From Candidatus Nomurabacteria bacterium (lineage in GTDB: Bacteria > Patescibacteriota > Minisyncoccia > Phycocordibacterales > UBA9973), in the NCBI GenBank assembly GCA_023898605.1, contig CP060230.1:241662-305661 (forward strand): 64,000 nt of DNA, written 5' to 3'. Positions 21,977 to 62,465 of the stretch are shown one piece after another. The notes beneath the pieces were generated by a model. That model saw nothing but the letters and a program-made list of their open reading frames with translations. It had not been told where the DNA came from and searched no databases. Numbering within the stretch: the first letter of the stretch is position 1; each line of letters starts with the position of its first letter. A program made the position numbers and the translations under genes.

Positions 21977-22447
21977 CTAGTATGTACCAGGGTCAGCTAC
22001 AGGGAGTTGTGGAATAGCGTTTTGCTGACCAAATGTGTTTGAGAGCACTGCTACAAGCCCCCACACAGAAAGCATGACGAAGAGTGCAAATATTCCCCAT
22101 AGTATATACTGAGCGCCCTCTTTTCTTTTTGAAGCGTTATCAGCATTTCTCATATACATAACAACTCCCCAGATAAACAATACTAGTGCAATAGCAAAAG
22201 CTAGAGGTACAAGAGCTTGAGTTATAAAACATATAACCCATATAACCAAACTTTTTAGATCTGTTAGTTCACTAGGACAAAAAGCGCTAGAAGAAGATTC
22301 TGAACCACTGGCTTCGAAAACAATATCTCCGGAGTCGCCAGATATGAAGATATCTGGACCAGGACCAGCAGCTAGAGCAAACGTCCCTACAAAAATTATG
22401 CTTAGCACCGCTATCGATATTAAGTTTTTATATATATTTCTTTTCAT
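21977..22447 (-). CDS. T4SS-pilin-like small membrane protein, paralog 3
   Basis: FIWGVVMYMRNADNASKRKEGAQYILWGIFALFVMLSVWGLVAVLSNTF. Confidence 0.55.
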   Translation of the reverse strand: MKRNIYKNLISIAVLSIIFVGTFALAAGPGPDIFISGDSGDIVFEASGSESSSSAFCPSELTDLKSLVIWVICFITQALVPLAFAIALVLFIWGVVMYMRNADNASKRKEGAQYILWGIFALFVMLSVWGLVAVLSNTFGQQNAIPQLPVADPGTY

Positions 22448-22450
22448 ATT

Positions 22451-22888
22451 TTAACAAGTTACACCGGGTTTTAGACAATCTATAGTTCCTCCCAGAACCT
22501 CAGCAAGTGTCCATGCGCCGAGTATTATAGCCGCACCGATAAGAGTCCACATAAGCGCTTTCTTCGCCTTTTCAAGCTCAGCAGGCTTTCCTCTGGCTAC
22601 CACAAACATAAATCCTGTGTAGATAACCATGAGTGTTATTATCGGAACCATTATAAATATAACAATATCCAGTATCTTGGATATAAGTACGGGTATAGAG
22701 TTTATCTCGTCTGAAAGTGGGTTGTTGAGTTGGAAATCTAGAGTTGCTGACTCTCCTGCACCAGAGGATCCTCCGTCTGGTCCACCACCAGACCCTCCAT
22801 CTTGTGCAAAAGAAACTCCAGACAAAATCAAAAACCATGTCATTGATATTAGAACTATTTTTTTCAAAGATTTTTTGTTCACATTCAT
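22451..22888 (-). CDS. T4SS-pilin-like small membrane protein, paralog 4 (Gly/Ser-rich N-terminal region)
   Basis: Same TM-loop-TM architecture (GFMFVVARGKPAELEKAKKALMWTLIGAAIILGAW). Confidence 0.5.
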   Translation of the reverse strand: MNVNKKSLKKIVLISMTWFLILSGVSFAQDGGSGGGPDGGSSGAGESATLDFQLNNPLSDEINSIPVLISKILDIVIFIMVPIITLMVIYTGFMFVVARGKPAELEKAKKALMWTLIGAAIILGAWTLAEVLGGTIDCLKPGVTC

Positions 22889-22897
22889 ATTATAGTA

Positions 22898-23320
22898 TTA
22901 CCCTTCTAGATAAATCAATTCTGGATCAACACCTAGCATAGTCATGAGCGTATATATAGCTAGCCAAGCAGCAAGAGCTATAACAAGTCCCCACAATACA
23001 TTCCAGAAAATCTTCTTGGCCTTCGAGACATTTCCAGGGTTTGACCCTGCTGTAAGGTATAGAAATCCGGCATACATAAACGCCAGCGCAGCAAGAGGCA
23101 TAGCAATAGTAAATAGAAGAAAATCTATAACATTCTCCATTGTTCCTATAACAAATTCAAAGTTGCACGGATATTCTGGATTGCCATCAGCTCCATAACC
23201 ACCGCAATGGACCAAGCCAACAGGCTCTGTTGTGTATGTTGTTTCTGCGTGAGCAAAACTACCAAAGAAAACGGTAGATATAACTGCCAACATTATAGAA
23301 AATAAAATTACTTTTTTCAT
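22898..23320 (-). CDS. T4SS-pilin-like small membrane protein, paralog 5
   Basis: Signal peptide. AGFLYLTAGSNPGNVSKAKKIFWNVLWGLVIALAAW. Confidence 0.5.
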   Translation of the reverse strand: MKKVILFSIMLAVISTVFFGSFAHAETTYTTEPVGLVHCGGYGADGNPEYPCNFEFVIGTMENVIDFLLFTIAMPLAALAFMYAGFLYLTAGSNPGNVSKAKKIFWNVLWGLVIALAAWLAIYTLMTMLGVDPELIYLEG

Positions 23321-51116: not shown

Positions 51117-51578
51117 TTGATAAAGATGACCAAACAGAGACCTTATTGGCAAGAAATGAGCCAATCTTTCCTGAAGAGGTACTACGAAAAAATAGAGGCC
51201 CTCGCCAAGGCCTTATCGAAGCAAAGTAAGAAAGAGAGACAATTGGAGAAATATTACAAATCTGCCTTCGAAAAGATTTACAAGGAGTTCAAAATCAAAA
51301 AAATTTTTCATATCGAAAAATATGAATTCCTCGAAAAACTCAGGAAATACGAAGAAGATGTTGTTAAAAAAGCAGTTGAAGAAACTTTGCACGTAGAACT
51401 TCTTCCAGGAGATCATCCGGATGGTGTACAGCTCAATCTACAAGGAGAAATAGAAATGCCATTTTCACAAATATCTTTCAATGAAGATAAAGAATTTAAA
51501 AATTGGCAAAAATCTGCTCCCTGGAGACAAGAATGGTTAAACGGAGAAATCGGAGGATGCTACGGATTTTATCACTGA
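51117..51578 (+). CDS. hypothetical protein
   Basis: ORF only. Confidence 0.4.
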   Translation: MIKMTKQRPYWQEMSQSFLKRYYEKIEALAKALSKQSKKERQLEKYYKSAFEKIYKEFKIKKIFHIEKYEFLEKLRKYEEDVVKKAVEETLHVELLPGDHPDGVQLNLQGEIEMPFSQISFNEDKEFKNWQKSAPWRQEWLNGEIGGCYGFYH

Positions 51579-55055: not shown

Positions 55056-55104
55056 AGGGCCGTGAGTGACAAACTCTAATAGTTATTAAAAACAATACCC
55101 TGGC

Positions 55105-55136
55105 AAAACCCCTCGAAAGAGGGGTTTTGTCTTTGT
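55105..55136 (+). terminator. Rho-independent terminator (aaaacccctc-gaaa-gaggggtttt)
   Basis: Perfect 6-bp GC stem, GAAA tetraloop, U-run. Confidence 0.6.
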
Positions 55137-55185
55137 ATAGAAAAAAACTACAGAAATTGCTATAATTGGTTTGTGCGATAATGCT

Positions 55186-55315
55186 TGCCTTTTGTAGGCC
55201 GGCGGCGCACTCACATAGGGTATTGTGTTGGAGTTCTGCCCCGCTGGCCTACAGCAGGCACGCAAAAAACACAAAATAAAAACAGTTAGATTTTTTTCTA
55301 GCTGTTTTTATTTTT
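55186..55315 (+). ncRNA. Candidate structured small RNA (GC-rich long helix tgtaggcc...ggcctaca containing AGCAG; ends with a terminator at 55281-55315); possibly SRP RNA-like, unresolved
   Basis: High GC (ggccggcggcgcac) in an AT-rich intergenic region. GCTATAAT -10 at 55170-55177. Antisense ORF 55086-55274 looks spurious. Confidence 0.25.
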
Positions 55316-55517: not shown

Positions 55518-55658
55518 ATGGCAGCAAAGAAGAAAGTGGCAAGAAAAGCTTCTAAGAAGAGAGCAGCTCCAAAGAAGAGAACTGCAAAAAAAGCTTCTAA
55601 GAAGAGAGCAGCTCCAAAGAAGAGAGCAGCTAAAAAAACTTCTAAAAGAAGAAAGTAA
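55518..55658 (+). CDS. Lys/Ala-rich basic mini-protein (46 aa; histone H1-like), paralog of 43287-43382
   Basis: Manual translation MAAKKKVARKASKKRAAPKKRTAKKASKKRAAPKKRAAKKTSKRRK. Two hairpin terminators follow (55690-55715, 55716-55747). Confidence 0.5.
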   Translation: MAAKKKVARKASKKRAAPKKRTAKKASKKRAAPKKRAAKKTSKRRK

Positions 55659-55756: not shown

Positions 55757-56310
55757 CCATATCTATAAGCCGAATTCTGTATCCAAACCAAAACGGTTTA
55801 GGACGGCAACTATTTATCTAGCCCTTCAATTGCTATCAGGGTCAAGCGACTCAGAGTGTACACATGTGTACACAATACGGTCTTGCACAGTGGTAAGGAT
55901 TTTGCCGTTTCACTAAACTGATTTACAAAAAGTAGATCAGCCGTGCGGCCATAAAAATGGCTTAGCACCCATGTTACCATGGTATTCACCCCAAGAAGAT
56001 TACTCTTCTCAGGCTGTCTTTTGTTTTTCAACAAATAGACGTCACTGCTCGCACCTCTACCAATACCTTTCTCTAAAAGAGCCAAGGCACTGATGACGGG
56101 GGTTACCTTCACACTTTCATGTGAATTCTATTTATATAAATAGAACGCTACCATCTTCCTTTGGAATCGGGAAAGGTGCACACCTTATATATACCCCTTC
56201 TTTATAGCAGCAAAGAAGAAAGAGGCATGCACCTTTCCCAACCCAAAGGCTGTGTTCGGACTTTCCTCATCCACACAAAGGTGGACGCAGCTGCCCGATA
56301 CAGGCAAGAA
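55757..56310 (-). ncRNA. rnpB: RNase P RNA (bacterial type), approximate ends; unusually long (~550 nt)
   Basis: Minus strand carries the P4 signatures GAGGAAAGUCCGAACACAG (56257-56268 region) and ACAGAAUUCGGCUUAUAG (55764-55781), with a GGAAAGGUGCA...UGCACCUUUCC long helix. Confidence 0.7.
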
Positions 56311-56988: not shown

Positions 56989-57061
56989 AAGTTAAATTAT
57001 AGCATGATAAAAATATCTAAAGACCCAAACAAAAAACCGGCCGATTGGCCGGTTTTTATTT

Positions 57062-58786
57062 TTATCCTTCGCAACTTACACAAACACTATCCCCTGCTAC
57101 GTACATTACTTTTGGTTTCTTTGAATCCATTTCTTGGAGTTTCTTTCTTCCGAACTGTTGTGCAGCATTCATACTGTGTTGGTAATAAAGAGTCTTTACT
57201 CCCTTCTCCCATGCATATAGATATAGTGAGTTTAGTTCTTTTACTGGCATGTTTGGATCTATCATTATATTTAGTGATTGAGCTTGGTCTATGTATTTTT
57301 GTCTTGTAGCTGCCTGATCTACGATAACTTTTTGGTCTATTTCACTAAATGTTCTAAATACTGTTTTCTCGTGATCTGAAAGAAAATCTAGGTGTTGAAC
57401 TGAACCATCGTTATCTCTTATGCTATCCCAGATTTCTTTTGTATTCTTTCCTTTCTTTTCTAGAAGTTTTTCTAGAATAGGATTTCTTATAGTTACCTTC
57501 ATCTTGTCTACGTCTTTTACAAAAGTATTGGACATAAGTGGCTCTATACTTTGAGAAACTTGTCCCAATATAAACGCAGAAGAAGTAGTAGGTGCAATAG
57601 CCATAAGTGTTGTGTTTCTTCTACCGTATCCTTTCAAAACTTCTGGTTCTCCATATTCTTTTGCAAGGTCTTCTGAAGCTTTGTAAGATCTTTCTTTTAT
57701 AAACTTGAATATTTCTTCGTTTAACTTAGCTGCTTCTTCACTTTCAAAAGGAATATTGTTCTCTTGTAAAAATGTGTGCCATCCAAGAACTCCTAGTCCT
57801 AGTGCTCTGTGTTCTTTTGCAAACTTGTGAGCACGCTTCATGAAATAAAATGCAGATTCTTTGTGTGAGTCTCCGCTATCTCTATAATCTTCTAGTCTGT
57901 TTATAAAATCAGTAAGAACAGAATCAAGAAAAGTAACTAGAGTCTCTACTGCATCTGTATCTTTCCATTCGTTGTAATGTCTGAGGTTCATAGAAGAAAG
58001 GCAACAAACGAAAGAAACTTCGTCGTTAGAAGGAAGACATATTTCAGAACAAAGATTGCTTCCATGTATTGTCATTTTTTTGTCTTTGTATACATCTACA
58101 GTGTTGTTGTTTACATTGTCACTAAATAGTATGTATGGGTAACCTATTTCTGTTCTTCTTTGTATTATTTTTGCCCAAACTTTTCTCTTATCTTCGTCTC
58201 CATCTACCATTTCTTTTAGCCACTTGTCGCCTACAGTAACAGCGTATGTAGATTCTTGTATAGGGTGACCTTCCTTTCCTATATTTAGATACTCTTCAAT
58301 ATCGGGGTGTTCTACTGGTAGGTATGGCGCAACGTGTCCACGTCTAACAGAACCTTGACTAACTATATTGATAAGGTTATCGAAAAGCTCCATAAAATGA
58401 ACAGAACCGGAAGAATGACCATTGCCTGATATTTCTGTACCACGAGGACGAAGACCACCAAAGAATACAGATGTACCACCACCATATTTTGTCATCATTC
58501 CCACCTCGGCATGTGTATATAGAATCCTAGACATGTCATCTTCTGTATAACTTCCGAAGCAACTTATCGGCAATCCTCTAGAAAGTCCGTAGTTTGCCCA
58601 TATCGGTGTGGCCAAAGAGTAGAAACCTCGAGACATATAATCATAAAACTTATCTGCAAACCCTGGTTTGCCGAGATACTTTTCTGCAGTCTCTGCTATA
58701 GCACGAATACGGTCTTCGGCTTCCATGCCTTTTGAGACGTATCCTTTTGATAAAAATTTTCTACTGTTTTCGTTTAGCCAATACAT
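57062..58786 (-). CDS. nrdA: ribonucleotide reductase catalytic (alpha) subunit lacking an N-terminal ATP-cone
   Basis: HGSNLCSEICLPS active-site motif. C-terminal Cys pair (CVSCEG). 574 aa. Confidence 0.75.
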   Translation of the reverse strand: MYWLNENSRKFLSKGYVSKGMEAEDRIRAIAETAEKYLGKPGFADKFYDYMSRGFYSLATPIWANYGLSRGLPISCFGSYTEDDMSRILYTHAEVGMMTKYGGGTSVFFGGLRPRGTEISGNGHSSGSVHFMELFDNLINIVSQGSVRRGHVAPYLPVEHPDIEEYLNIGKEGHPIQESTYAVTVGDKWLKEMVDGDEDKRKVWAKIIQRRTEIGYPYILFSDNVNNNTVDVYKDKKMTIHGSNLCSEICLPSNDEVSFVCCLSSMNLRHYNEWKDTDAVETLVTFLDSVLTDFINRLEDYRDSGDSHKESAFYFMKRAHKFAKEHRALGLGVLGWHTFLQENNIPFESEEAAKLNEEIFKFIKERSYKASEDLAKEYGEPEVLKGYGRRNTTLMAIAPTTSSAFILGQVSQSIEPLMSNTFVKDVDKMKVTIRNPILEKLLEKKGKNTKEIWDSIRDNDGSVQHLDFLSDHEKTVFRTFSEIDQKVIVDQAATRQKYIDQAQSLNIMIDPNMPVKELNSLYLYAWEKGVKTLYYQHSMNAAQQFGRKKLQEMDSKKPKVMYVAGDSVCVSCEG

Positions 58787-58825
58787 ATTATTTTGGTGGT
58801 TAAATTAGTTCTAATAATTGATGAT

Positions 58826-60100
58826 TTAAAATAAATCATCACTGGTAATACTTTTACTCTTTTTATTATAATTGATTGATTTCTTATTGAAAAAGTCCCC
58901 GTGTTTTGTCGCTATAACCTCATCGTAGAACCAGTCAGAATCCTTTAGGAGATTTTCGTCTGTTTCAAAGATTTTCTTTATTCCTATACTATCTAGAGAC
59001 TTGTTGAATCTATCTTTTATGAACTCTATAACAACTGCTTTTGGCAGAAAATCTAGTTCTCCTTTTTCAAATATCCACTCGACTACCTGCTTCTCTGACT
59101 CAAAGGCGTCATTACACATATCGATAACTGCGTCTTCAAATTCTTTGTCGAACCATTCTGGATGTTCTTTCTTGATTATGTTTATAAGATCGATTCCAAA
59201 AAGTCCGTGGATCTGCTCTTCTTTTGAAGTTGCCTCAACAGCGTTGGAGATTCCCTTGAAAAGATTTCTATATTTGTTAAACGACATTATCACCAAGAAC
59301 TGTGAGAAAAGTGATACGTGTTCTATAAATAGAGAGAACAAAAGTATAGACTGGCTGTATTCTTGATTATCTTCACTTCTAGAATTTGCAAGTGATCTTT
59401 CTAGATATTGAACTCTTTTTGTAAGAGCTGGTATATCATTTATTTTTTTGAAAACTTCGTTTAGTCCGAGAATTTCTAGAAGGTGTGCATAAGCGTCTGT
59501 ATGTCTAACTTCACTTTCTGCAAAAGTAGAGCCAACAGCACCAACTTCTGGCTTTGGTATCTTTTTGTATATGTCACCCCAAAAAGTTTTTACTGCAACT
59601 TCGATTTGTGCAATCGCAATCATTGCGTTTCTTATAACATTTCTTTCTTGTTCGTTGACATTGACTTTGAAATCTTGAACGTCACCAACAAAATTGAATT
59701 CTGTGTGTATCCAATATGAGTGTCTTATTGCACTAACGTATTCATAAAGTTCTGGATACTCGTAAGGTTTGAGTGAAAGTCTTTTTTTGAACAAATCTCT
59801 CTTTCTTTCTTTATTTCTTTGTTCTCTATATAGTATGTATGCTTTAGCAACTTCAAAATCACCCTTCTTTGCAATCTCTTGCTCTACAATATTTTGTATA
59901 GATTCAACATCTGGAACATGATCTTTGTCAGAAAACTGATCTTCTACACGCAAAAGGACATGATCAACCAAATAAGTAAGATTGATATCTTCAATAGGAG
60001 TATCAGTAGCTTGGTAAGCCTTCGATATAGCTGCTTCTATTCTCTTTCTATCAAAATCAACTATAGATCCATTTCTTTTTTGGACAAGCTGTATTGTCAT
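58826..60100 (-). CDS. nrdB: ribonucleotide reductase radical-generating (beta) subunit with an N-terminal ATP-cone
   Basis: N-terminal ATP-cone (VQKRNGSIVDFDRKRIEAAISKA), then ferritin-like di-iron motifs (FAESEVRHTDAYAHLLE, EEQIHGLFG). Confidence 0.75.
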   Translation of the reverse strand: MTIQLVQKRNGSIVDFDRKRIEAAISKAYQATDTPIEDINLTYLVDHVLLRVEDQFSDKDHVPDVESIQNIVEQEIAKKGDFEVAKAYILYREQRNKERKRDLFKKRLSLKPYEYPELYEYVSAIRHSYWIHTEFNFVGDVQDFKVNVNEQERNVIRNAMIAIAQIEVAVKTFWGDIYKKIPKPEVGAVGSTFAESEVRHTDAYAHLLEILGLNEVFKKINDIPALTKRVQYLERSLANSRSEDNQEYSQSILLFSLFIEHVSLFSQFLVIMSFNKYRNLFKGISNAVEATSKEEQIHGLFGIDLINIIKKEHPEWFDKEFEDAVIDMCNDAFESEKQVVEWIFEKGELDFLPKAVVIEFIKDRFNKSLDSIGIKKIFETDENLLKDSDWFYDEVIATKHGDFFNKKSINYNKKSKSITSDDLF

Positions 60101-60289
60101 AGGGGTATATATTGATGCTTAAACTATTAATGAGTGTGTAAATACATTGTACCCCACTTGGCGAAGTGCTCGCTACTGTTGAAAACCTCTAAAAAAATAT
60201 TTTTTCTAGTATGTAAAGAATATTTTTTGTCAATAAAAAATTTAGTCCTAAAAAATATACCTTATTTCAGATTCCACAAAAAAGTATTT

Positions 60290-60724
60290 CTAAAAAACCT
60301 CTAGCTTATCAGAAATAGAGCATTTGTTCAGCTCAAAGAAGCCCGAATTTGCCTCCAAAACATACTTTATCGGAACCCCAGAATAGAAAACTTTTGGAAA
60401 AGTTTCTGGAGAAACCTCTCTTTCTACTCCGACGATTTCCATGTCTTCATTTATCCAAATTATGTCTATCGGAAATAGCATGTCTTTCATCCAAAACCCT
60501 GCAATCTGTGGTCTCTCAAACATAAAAAGCATACCTTCGGACTCTCCCATGTATTCTCTGCCTGACAAACCTTGTTTTCTTTCAAGAGTACTGTCAGAAA
60601 TATCGACATAAAGGTTTCTACCACAAATATTTATCTTCGTATCGCTCCTAGAATCAACTTTGTAAATCAAAAAACCTAAACAAAAAAGAAGAGCGAAAGA
60701 AATAAATATATTTTTGTATTTCAT
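60290..60724 (-). CDS. DUF192 domain protein with signal anchor
   Basis: GMLFMFERPQIAGFWMKDMLFPIDIIW pattern of DUF192. Confidence 0.6.
   Translation of the reverse strand: MKYKNIFISFALLFCLGFLIYKVDSRSDTKINICGRNLYVDISDSTLERKQGLSGREYMGESEGMLFMFERPQIAGFWMKDMLFPIDIIWINEDMEIVGVEREVSPETFPKVFYSGVPIKYVLEANSGFFELNKCSISDKLEVF

Positions 60725-60904: not shown

Positions 60905-62465
<1,561 letters not shown>

Follow-up and report, generated by a model that had tools for sequence, protein, structure and literature searches.

A class Id ribonucleotide reductase (RNR) in which the ATP-cone is carried by the radical-generating subunit NrdB is already known and has been structurally characterised in Leeuwenhoekiella blandensis (hereafter Lb; Rozman Grinberg et al. 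2018, eLife 7:e31529). The 2018 survey listed 93 RefSeq sequences of this cone-NrdB type, 70 of them from Flavobacteriales (eLife 7:e31529), and the literature also speaks of 'a few additional' fusions and regards the cone on NrdB as a 'relatively recent acquisition'. Beta-borne cones are found almost only in operons of the order beta-alpha (Burnim et al. 2022). The present analysis concerns an nrdB-nrdA locus of a Candidatus Nomurabacteria bacterium, a member of the candidate phyla radiation (CPR) or Patescibacteria, lying within a 64,000-nucleotide stretch of contig CP060230.1 (positions 241,662 to 305,661 of the forward strand), which is referred to as the window and on which all coordinates below are given. 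The locus is, as judged from its sequence, a two-gene operon for an RNR of class Id (NrdAi/NrdBi) with the cone on beta and a further member of the kind described from Lb. This assignment is made because the closest solved structures of both subunits, the family profile TIGR02510 for NrdA and the structural match of the NrdB model to the Lb protein (5OLK) point to the same subclass. The features that make up the operon are the following:

58826..60100, minus strand: nrdB, the class Id (NrdBi) radical-generating subunit, an open reading frame (ORF) of 424 amino acids (aa) with ATP-cone, ferritin-like core and NrdA-binding tail, identified by Pfam and the match to 5OLK
59813..60085, minus strand: ATP-cone of NrdB (PF03477), residues 6-96 by Pfam, the functional domain covering about residues 1-103
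58955..59779, minus strand: ferritin-like dimetal core of NrdB, residues 108-382 (Ribonuc_red_sm, PF00268, E 4.5e-60)
58829..58915, minus strand: C-terminal tail of NrdB, residues 396-424 (ending KSITSDDLF), the presumed NrdA-docking peptide, defined by conservation
58787..58825, minus strand: nrdB-nrdA spacer of 39 nt with in-frame stops, read directly from the sequence
57062..58786, minus strand: nrdA, the minimal class Id (NrdAi) catalytic subunit of 574 aa lacking an ATP-cone, identified by Pfam, TIGR02510 and the match to 6DQX

The two ORFs, which an earlier reading made from the letters of the DNA (the sequence-only reading) had proposed, are thus both present on the minus strand, and the fusion of an ATP-cone to a ferritin-like domain that it had described in the 424-aa beta subunit is borne out by the two Pfam domains. 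Related loci were collected by scanning a single genome for each GTDB species, which gave at least 544 relatives; the 80 homologs referred to below are the best 80 of these, with 60-83% identity, and all of them cover NrdB residues 1-424. The best solved-structure match of NrdB is the Lb ATP-cone-NrdB (5OLK_A), aligned over residues 3-424 (E 8.6e-169), followed by 6SF4, the Lb core without its cone, and by the beta subunits of class Id from Aggregatibacter (8DQ3) and Flavobacterium johnsoniae (6CWO), with class Ic, Ia and Ib structures giving far weaker matches than those of class Id. Over its whole length NrdB shares 60% identity with Lb NrdB; the cone is the least similar part at 35%, the core reaches 68% and the C-terminal tail 76%. 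NCBI already lists a protein of the same sequence (P0001, 100% identity) from a Candidatus Nomurabacteria bacterium, annotated simply as RNR beta subunit.

The residues of the dimetal site follow the same pattern. In Lb NrdB the metal is bound by E170, E200, H203, E263, E298 and H301, and the Lys-containing subgroup of class Id is marked by a Lys in the helix-B loop, a conserved Trp and a radical-position Tyr hydrogen-bonded to a Thr (PMC6754362). The ligands of the present protein (E167, E197, H200, E260, E295 and H298) are the same as those of Lb, and K171, W174, Y204 and T291 correspond to Lb K174, W177, Y207 and T294; all ten positions are invariant in 80/80 homologs. Mean identity across these homologs is 78% for the core and 88% for the tail, whose terminal Phe is kept in 79 of the 80. 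An AlphaFold2 (AF2) model of NrdB gave 5OLK as the top Foldseek hit, aligned over both domains; the top hits were all class Id beta subunits, the cores of which superpose on the model with template modelling (TM) scores of 0.84-0.88. The tail has a low predicted local distance difference test (pLDDT) score in the model, indicative of disorder, and is likewise disordered in 5OLK.

The N-terminal domain of NrdB matches the ATP-cone profile PF03477 with an E-value of 4.6e-22 and 78.8 bits against a cut-off of 25.8, over profile positions 3-87 of 88. In the AF2 model it adopts the cone fold, a beta-hairpin (residues 5-7 and 13-15) followed by four helices (18-31, 38-55, 65-78 and 82-106), with mean pLDDT values of 69-90, mostly about 80, in 10-residue blocks over residues 1-90. 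A cone that binds two nucleotides is recognised by basic residues in its roof and by a last helix that carries an aromatic residue and two arginines; in the NrdD of P. copri (PcNrdD), K7, R8, Y83, R87 and R91 contact two dATPs, and in Lb R102 contacts the gamma-phosphates, R102 being the only one of Y94/R98/R102 named in the Lb paper. This signature is present here as the Lys-Arg roof K8 and R9 and the last-helix aromatic-x3-Arg-x3-Arg motif Y91/R95/R99, which aligns with Y94/R98/R102 of Lb and Y83/R87/R91 of PcNrdD, K8 and R9 corresponding to K7 and R8 of the latter. K8, R9, F16, Y88, Y91, R92 and R99 do not vary in any of the 80 homologs and R95 is found in 70/80, whereas the cone as a whole has a mean identity of only 49% (range 33-75%). 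Its rate of evolution is about 2.9 times that of the core, cone and core distances co-varying with a Spearman coefficient of 0.80. The retention of the putative nucleotide-contact residues while the rest of the domain diverges indicates that purifying selection acts on nucleotide binding by the cone. A six-frame scan of the 64-kb window with a hidden Markov model (HMM) of the cone built from the homologs recovered the NrdB cone at E 5.9e-41 and no second ATP-cone, the next match being at E 0.68.

The catalytic subunit belongs to the same subclass. Its closest solved structures are the class Id alpha subunits 6DQX (E 4.9e-215) and 6DQW (E 2.5e-180), it scores 797 bits against the NCBIfam model TIGR02510 'NrdE-prime' (cut-off 602), and its length of 574 aa is close to the NrdAi median of 564 aa (PMC9669993). 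The Pfam search of NrdA returned Ribonuc_red_lgC (PF02867, E 1.1e-99), a borderline Ribonuc_red_lgN at residues 4-70 and no PF03477 match over the 574 aa. The claim that NrdA carries no ATP-cone therefore holds, while the further statement that it starts directly in the catalytic barrel does not, since a short all-alpha N-terminal region comes first. The catalytic Cys/Asn/Glu triad, the redox Cys pair, the Tyr-Tyr relay and the C-terminal Cys pair could all be located, their equivalence to the E. coli sites being drawn by motif: of 71 homologs, 70-71 retain C76, N244/C246/E248, C261 and Y534/Y535, and 63-64 retain the C-terminal C569-x-x-C572 pair.

The junction between the genes leaves no room for a hidden cone on NrdA. 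In-frame TAG and TAA codons in the 39-nt spacer precede the nrdA ATG, which makes an N-terminal extension of NrdA impossible, and in the related loci the frame upstream of NrdA is open for at most 74 codons (median 6); an upstream exon or alternative start giving NrdA a cone, which the sequence-only reading had named among the findings that would overturn it, was accordingly rejected.

The same architecture was observed in all 84 contigs examined, that is, those of the best 80 homologs and four with the sequence of the window: a single cone joined to the NrdB core, with a cone-less nrdA downstream. The gap from nrdB to nrdA in these contigs is 7-441 nt with a median of about 41, and the match to NrdA begins at residue 1-4. 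The beta-then-alpha order in 84/84 contigs fits the rule of Burnim et al. (2022). The best 80 relatives are nearly all from metagenome-assembled genomes (MAGs) of Patescibacteria, including Paceibacterota, Nomurabacteria, Kaiserbacteria, Gracilibacteria, Peregrinibacteria and others. The beta-borne cone is thus the rule in the lineage of this organism and the usual arrangement across a large part of the Patescibacteria. Two contigs binned as archaeal, from a Woesearchaeota MAG (L054) and a Methanosarcinales MAG (L056), carry the same cone-nrdB/nrdA operon with 64-65% identity, which reflects either gene transfer between CPR and DPANN archaea or contamination during binning.

When 1.84 billion cluster representatives were searched exhaustively, 248 proteins matched at E<=1e-30. 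The best 150 of these NrdBi-like representatives comprise 34 with cone and core, 97 with the core only and 19 fragments, so that a cone is present in 34 of the 131 that are N-terminally complete. As the sequence-only reading had suggested, the protein was placed against NrdBi sequences: in a neighbour-joining (NJ) tree of the cores this NrdB, Lb NrdB and the 80 related-locus homologs fall within one clade of 83 tips, all with a cone, and cone presence requires at least 10 state changes over the tree compared with about 38 when labels are shuffled, for a sample picked by similarity to the CPR query and with L. blandensis as the sole flavobacterial sequence.

Uncultivated viral contigs also bear the cone-nrdB/nrdA pair. 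They yielded 275 relatives; of the 80 closest, 60 have a cone, and the highest identity is 59%. The beta-borne cone is common in uncultivated viruses. A recent import of the operon from a phage was considered and rejected, the best viral identity being 59% against 83% within the CPR and the local G+C content of 0.355 being that of the window. The arrangement had been called rare by the sequence-only reading, which is true of the 2018 RefSeq picture of 93 sequences and untrue of this lineage, where 80/80 best loci are alike; the 2018 picture understates the spread of cone-NrdB. No paper combining ATP-cones with CPR or Patescibacteria was found in a literature search.

Some members of the wider family show peculiarities of their own. 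Five loci from 'uncultured bacterium' MAGs (L061, L062, L066, L067 and L068), which cluster with Lb NrdB in the NJ tree of the cores, have in-frame TGA codons within nrdB; these fall on alignment positions 11 and/or 80, on or beside the Gly residues G11 and G80 of the present NrdB, consistent with genetic code 25 (UGA=Gly). Many NrdBi-like representatives of 550-820 aa (P0122, P0124, P0131, P0143, P0155, P0156, P0163 and others) match the core in two or three separate stretches, which suggests inteins or other insertions. In P0135, a protein of 1019 aa, the N-terminus matches the full 424-aa NrdB, and the length allows a NrdB-NrdA fusion or a read-through call.

Taken together, the locus is most probably (at roughly 0.8) a class Id operon equipped with the published Lb-type cone switch, in which ATP would sustain activity and dATP would induce an inhibitory beta4 form, a reading made by analogy with the Lb enzyme. 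What the analysis itself established are the domain layout, the family to which the proteins belong, the conserved residues, the fold and the gene order described above. NrdA has the thiyl-radical Cys, the redox Cys pair, the Tyr-Tyr relay, the CxxC shuttle and presumably the specificity site, with no overall-activity site of its own. NrdB would, by homology, contain a Mn2(IV,III) cofactor built with superoxide and lacking a tyrosyl radical, and its cone, of the two-nucleotide-binding type, would serve as the overall-activity sensor. With ATP in the cone NrdB would remain dimeric and form the active alpha2beta2 complex, as in L. blandensis and Facklamia ignava; with dATP (or dADP) the cones would pair through their last two helices (3 and 4) into beta4 tetramers, which would bind NrdA only in the non-productive complexes alpha2beta4 or alpha4beta4, and dNTP synthesis would be switched off. 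In this chain the metal identity, nucleotide binding, tetramerisation and inhibition are carried over from the characterised enzymes. The view of the sequence-only reading that overall activity is regulated through the small subunit agrees with the closest characterised system (5OLK), whose nucleotide-binding cone residues are conserved here, and is likewise a matter of homology.

A number of observations weigh against so close an analogy. The cone shares only 35% identity with the Lb cone, in which the cone-cone interface is made by D73, D/E76, M80, K89, I92, I93 and R95; the equivalents E73, K86, I89 and R92 are conserved in the present NrdB, while Asp73, Met80 and Ile93 of Lb are replaced by Asn70, Ala77 and Leu90. 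These positions are moreover polymorphic in the clade, position 70 among the 80 homologs being Asp in 50 and Asn in 30 and position 77 being Ala in 39 and Met in 39. Since interface residues differ and vary within the clade, the oligomer geometry or the dATP sensitivity could differ, and the oligomer may depart in detail from that of Lb. The presumed Mn2(IV,III) identity of the cofactor rests on the identity of the ligands, a metal not being readable from sequence, and the AF2 model of NrdB, built from a shallow alignment, is overall only of moderate quality (mean pLDDT 69.9).

There is an alternative in which the cone is a functional sensor that acts through a quaternary mechanism unlike the Lb beta4, either by way of another oligomer or by interfering with NrdA docking or radical transfer. 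The replaced residues Asn70, Ala77 and Leu90, variable in the clade, speak for it, as does the diversity of the inhibitory assemblies used by ATP-cones in general (alpha4beta4, alpha4, alpha6, beta4 and NrdD tetramers); even the F. ignava and Lb cones, which are 28% identical, differ in ATP stoichiometry. However, both of these characterised NrdBi cones form a dATP-driven beta4 despite their low mutual identity of 28%, and the present protein keeps both the last two helices and the central hydrophobic and basic residues of the interface (I89, K86 and R92), so that a departure of this order is considered improbable.

A vestigial or degenerate cone without a regulatory role, comparable to the inactive extra cones of some NrdA proteins, would fit its rapid evolution, at about 2.9 times the rate of the core. 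It is very hard to reconcile with the invariance of K8, R9, Y91 and R99 in 80/80 homologs (R95 in 70/80) at cone identities down to 33%, with a Pfam score three times the gathering cut-off, and with the retention of the domain in 84/84 contigs of streamlined CPR genomes, and it carries very little weight beside the Lb-type switch. That the fusion is an artefact, a mis-assembly or frameshift having joined a separate cone gene such as an nrdR fragment to nrdB, or that a cone on NrdA was missed, is effectively refuted already, as no point in its support was found, the ORF runs uninterrupted in the window and in 84 contigs that different studies assembled independently, and the spacer stops and short upstream frames described above close off the start of NrdA.

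The surroundings of the operon were examined for control elements and neighbours, for which the following features were predicted:

60146..60151, minus strand: -10-like box TACAAT, the probable nrdBA promoter, 45 nt upstream of the nrdB ATG, within a conserved block tTTtTG-TATAaT of the close-clade spacers
60191..60218, minus strand: CTTTACA box with a T-tract (then an A-tract), a candidate operator or UP element with clade-specific conservation
57032..57057, strand not assigned: GC-rich hairpin of 11 bp flanked by A/T runs, 5 nt past the nrdA stop, from a terminator scan
60290..60724, minus strand: DUF192 gene, the same-strand upstream neighbour of nrdB (Pfam PF02643, E 1.2e-26)

The hairpin is a probable bidirectional intrinsic terminator closing the operon. 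The distance from the -10 box to the nrdB ATG varies from 3 to 54 nt in the close clade. In eleven loci (L007, L010, L012, L014, L015, L019, L022, L023, L025, L028 and L036) the -10-like box ends 8-12 nt before the nrdB ATG, a spacing which, in about ten close homologs, implies leaderless or near-leaderless nrdB mRNAs.

The CTTTACA element was studied in loci L001-L037 and L055 and is invariant in the close clade. In 29 of 32 close loci a distance of 66-68 nt separates it from the -10 box downstream; in the window this distance is 60 nt. A single copy of the composite motif is present in the window, where 0.18 would be expected, and 22 of its 24 occurrences in 792 kb of related loci are upstream of nrdB. 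It is a candidate nrdB-specific operator or UP element. Two other interpretations were rejected, namely that CTTTACA is the loop of a DUF192 terminator, the minimum free energy (MFE) being -3.5 against -3.2 kcal/mol for shuffled sequences with only 2/38 loci at or below -8, and that it is a sigma-70 -35 box paired with the T-tract, the spacing of about 12 nt being too short. The regulator NrdR reportedly binds tandem 16-bp boxes (acaCwAtATaTwGtgt) in nrd promoters. No match to this consensus within 3 mismatches was found near the operon, two matches elsewhere being at chance level, and no second ATP-cone or Zn-ribbon NrdR-like ORF that could be nrdR was detected within the 64-kb window; an ORF of NrdR size at 51117-51578 was discarded as it has no Pfam hit.

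In 36 of the 37 loci with NrdB at least 75% identical, the gene directly preceding nrdB is DUF192, and the arrangement DUF192-nrdB-nrdA-Rce1 recurs on independent ENA contigs. This synteny is conserved without an obvious functional link. The DUF192 protein has a predicted N-terminal hydrophobic segment and is only 32-49% identical among loci L001-L041.

The architecture, structure and mechanism of this enzyme type were published in 2018-2021 and the locus offers no new biology in that respect; what is worth recording is that the beta-borne cone, held to be rare and mostly flavobacterial, is widespread in Patescibacteria and viruses. An oxygen- or superoxide-dependent Mn RNR with tight dATP feedback, if the analogy holds, would bear on the way in which ultra-small host-dependent bacteria make dNTPs and on their relations to oxygen. 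A bolder and rather doubtful proposal is that the cone-NrdBi/NrdAi operon is the standard, possibly the only, RNR of CPR bacteria of the Paceibacteria/Nomurabacteria type, that the NrdB cone is their sole dNTP switch, and that transcription is controlled not through NrdR but through the lineage-specific CTTTACA/T-tract/A-tract element, set at a fixed 67 nt from the -10 box and bound by some other factor. It was stated in 2018 that every organism with cone-NrdB also encodes other RNRs, to which a cone-NrdB as the only RNR would, if true, stand in contrast; the NrdB cone would then be the sole overall switch of the dNTP supply of a minimal cell.

Other features of the window were also noted. A complete 16S rRNA gene (60915-62464, minus strand, 1352 bits) is followed by DUF192 and nrdBA and not by a 23S, 5S or tRNA gene, so the rRNA genes seem to be unlinked. 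At 55761-56302 (minus strand) a divergent RNase P RNA matches the full class-B model (positions 1-365) at E 8.8e-14, its score of 55 bits being below the gathering score of 97 so that it is missed at the default Rfam threshold; its span of 542 nt implies about 180 nt of insertions. The GC-rich segment of about 190 nt at 55100-55290 (minus strand) forms a long imperfect hairpin followed by an intrinsic terminator, with an MFE of -73.6 against -43.5 +/- 3.9 for shuffled sequences (z -7.6), and is a candidate small RNA, like that of the signal recognition particle (SRP) or 6S; the Rfam search at E<=1 gave no SRP, 6S or family-consistent match and only sub-threshold hits to unrelated small RNAs and microRNAs. 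A Lys/Ala-rich repeat ORF of 46 aa (MAAKKKVARKASKKRAAPKKRTAKKASKKRAAPKKRAAKKTSKRRK) at 55518-55658 (plus strand) resembles histone-H1-like basic DNA-binding proteins, and a 46-aa gene without a Pfam hit is called at the equivalent position on the independent contig L081. Three tandem paralogous ORFs of about 140-156 aa at 21977-23320 (minus strand) match the type IV secretion system (T4SS) pilin / TrbC-VirB2 pilin families.

Among the described systems the Lb class Id RNR (5OLK, 6SF4/6SF5) is the closest, having the same architecture and gene order and a NrdB of 427 aa as against 424 here. The two NrdB proteins share the metal ligands, the Lys/Trp/Tyr/Thr signature, the SITSDDLF tail, the two-nucleotide cone motif and the membership of the all-cone clade; they differ in the cone, 35% identical, in the KRxG position, where the canonical Gly of the present protein is a Tyr in Lb, and in their hosts, a flavobacterium in the one case and a CPR bacterium in the other. 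The Grx-ATP-cone-NrdBi of F. ignava (Rozman Grinberg et al. 2018, J Biol Chem 293:15889) is likewise a NrdBi with a cone, with nrdA 46 nt downstream and a dATP-induced beta4, but has an extra N-terminal glutaredoxin (Grx) domain, whereas the present NrdB begins directly with the cone; a Pfam survey of about 50 ORFs of the window found no thioredoxin, glutaredoxin, NrdH, NrdI or other RNR genes. The enzymes of F. johnsoniae and Aggregatibacter actinomycetemcomitans (beta) and of Actinobacillus ureae (alpha) (6CWO-6CWQ, 8DQ3-8DQ5, 6DQW and 6DQX) belong to the same NrdAi/NrdBi subclass and share the minimal alpha subunit and, presumably by homology, the Mn2 site. The F. johnsoniae and Aggregatibacter beta subunits, of about 325-345 aa, are without an ATP-cone and these systems thus have no known overall-activity switch. 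Two known cones of catalytic subunits, from class Ia and class III enzymes, match the present cone at E 2.6e-4 and 6.5e-10 and share with it the KR roof and the Y-x3-R-x3-R motif; those cones sit on the catalytic subunits and drive other assemblies, whereas the cone described here sits on NrdB.

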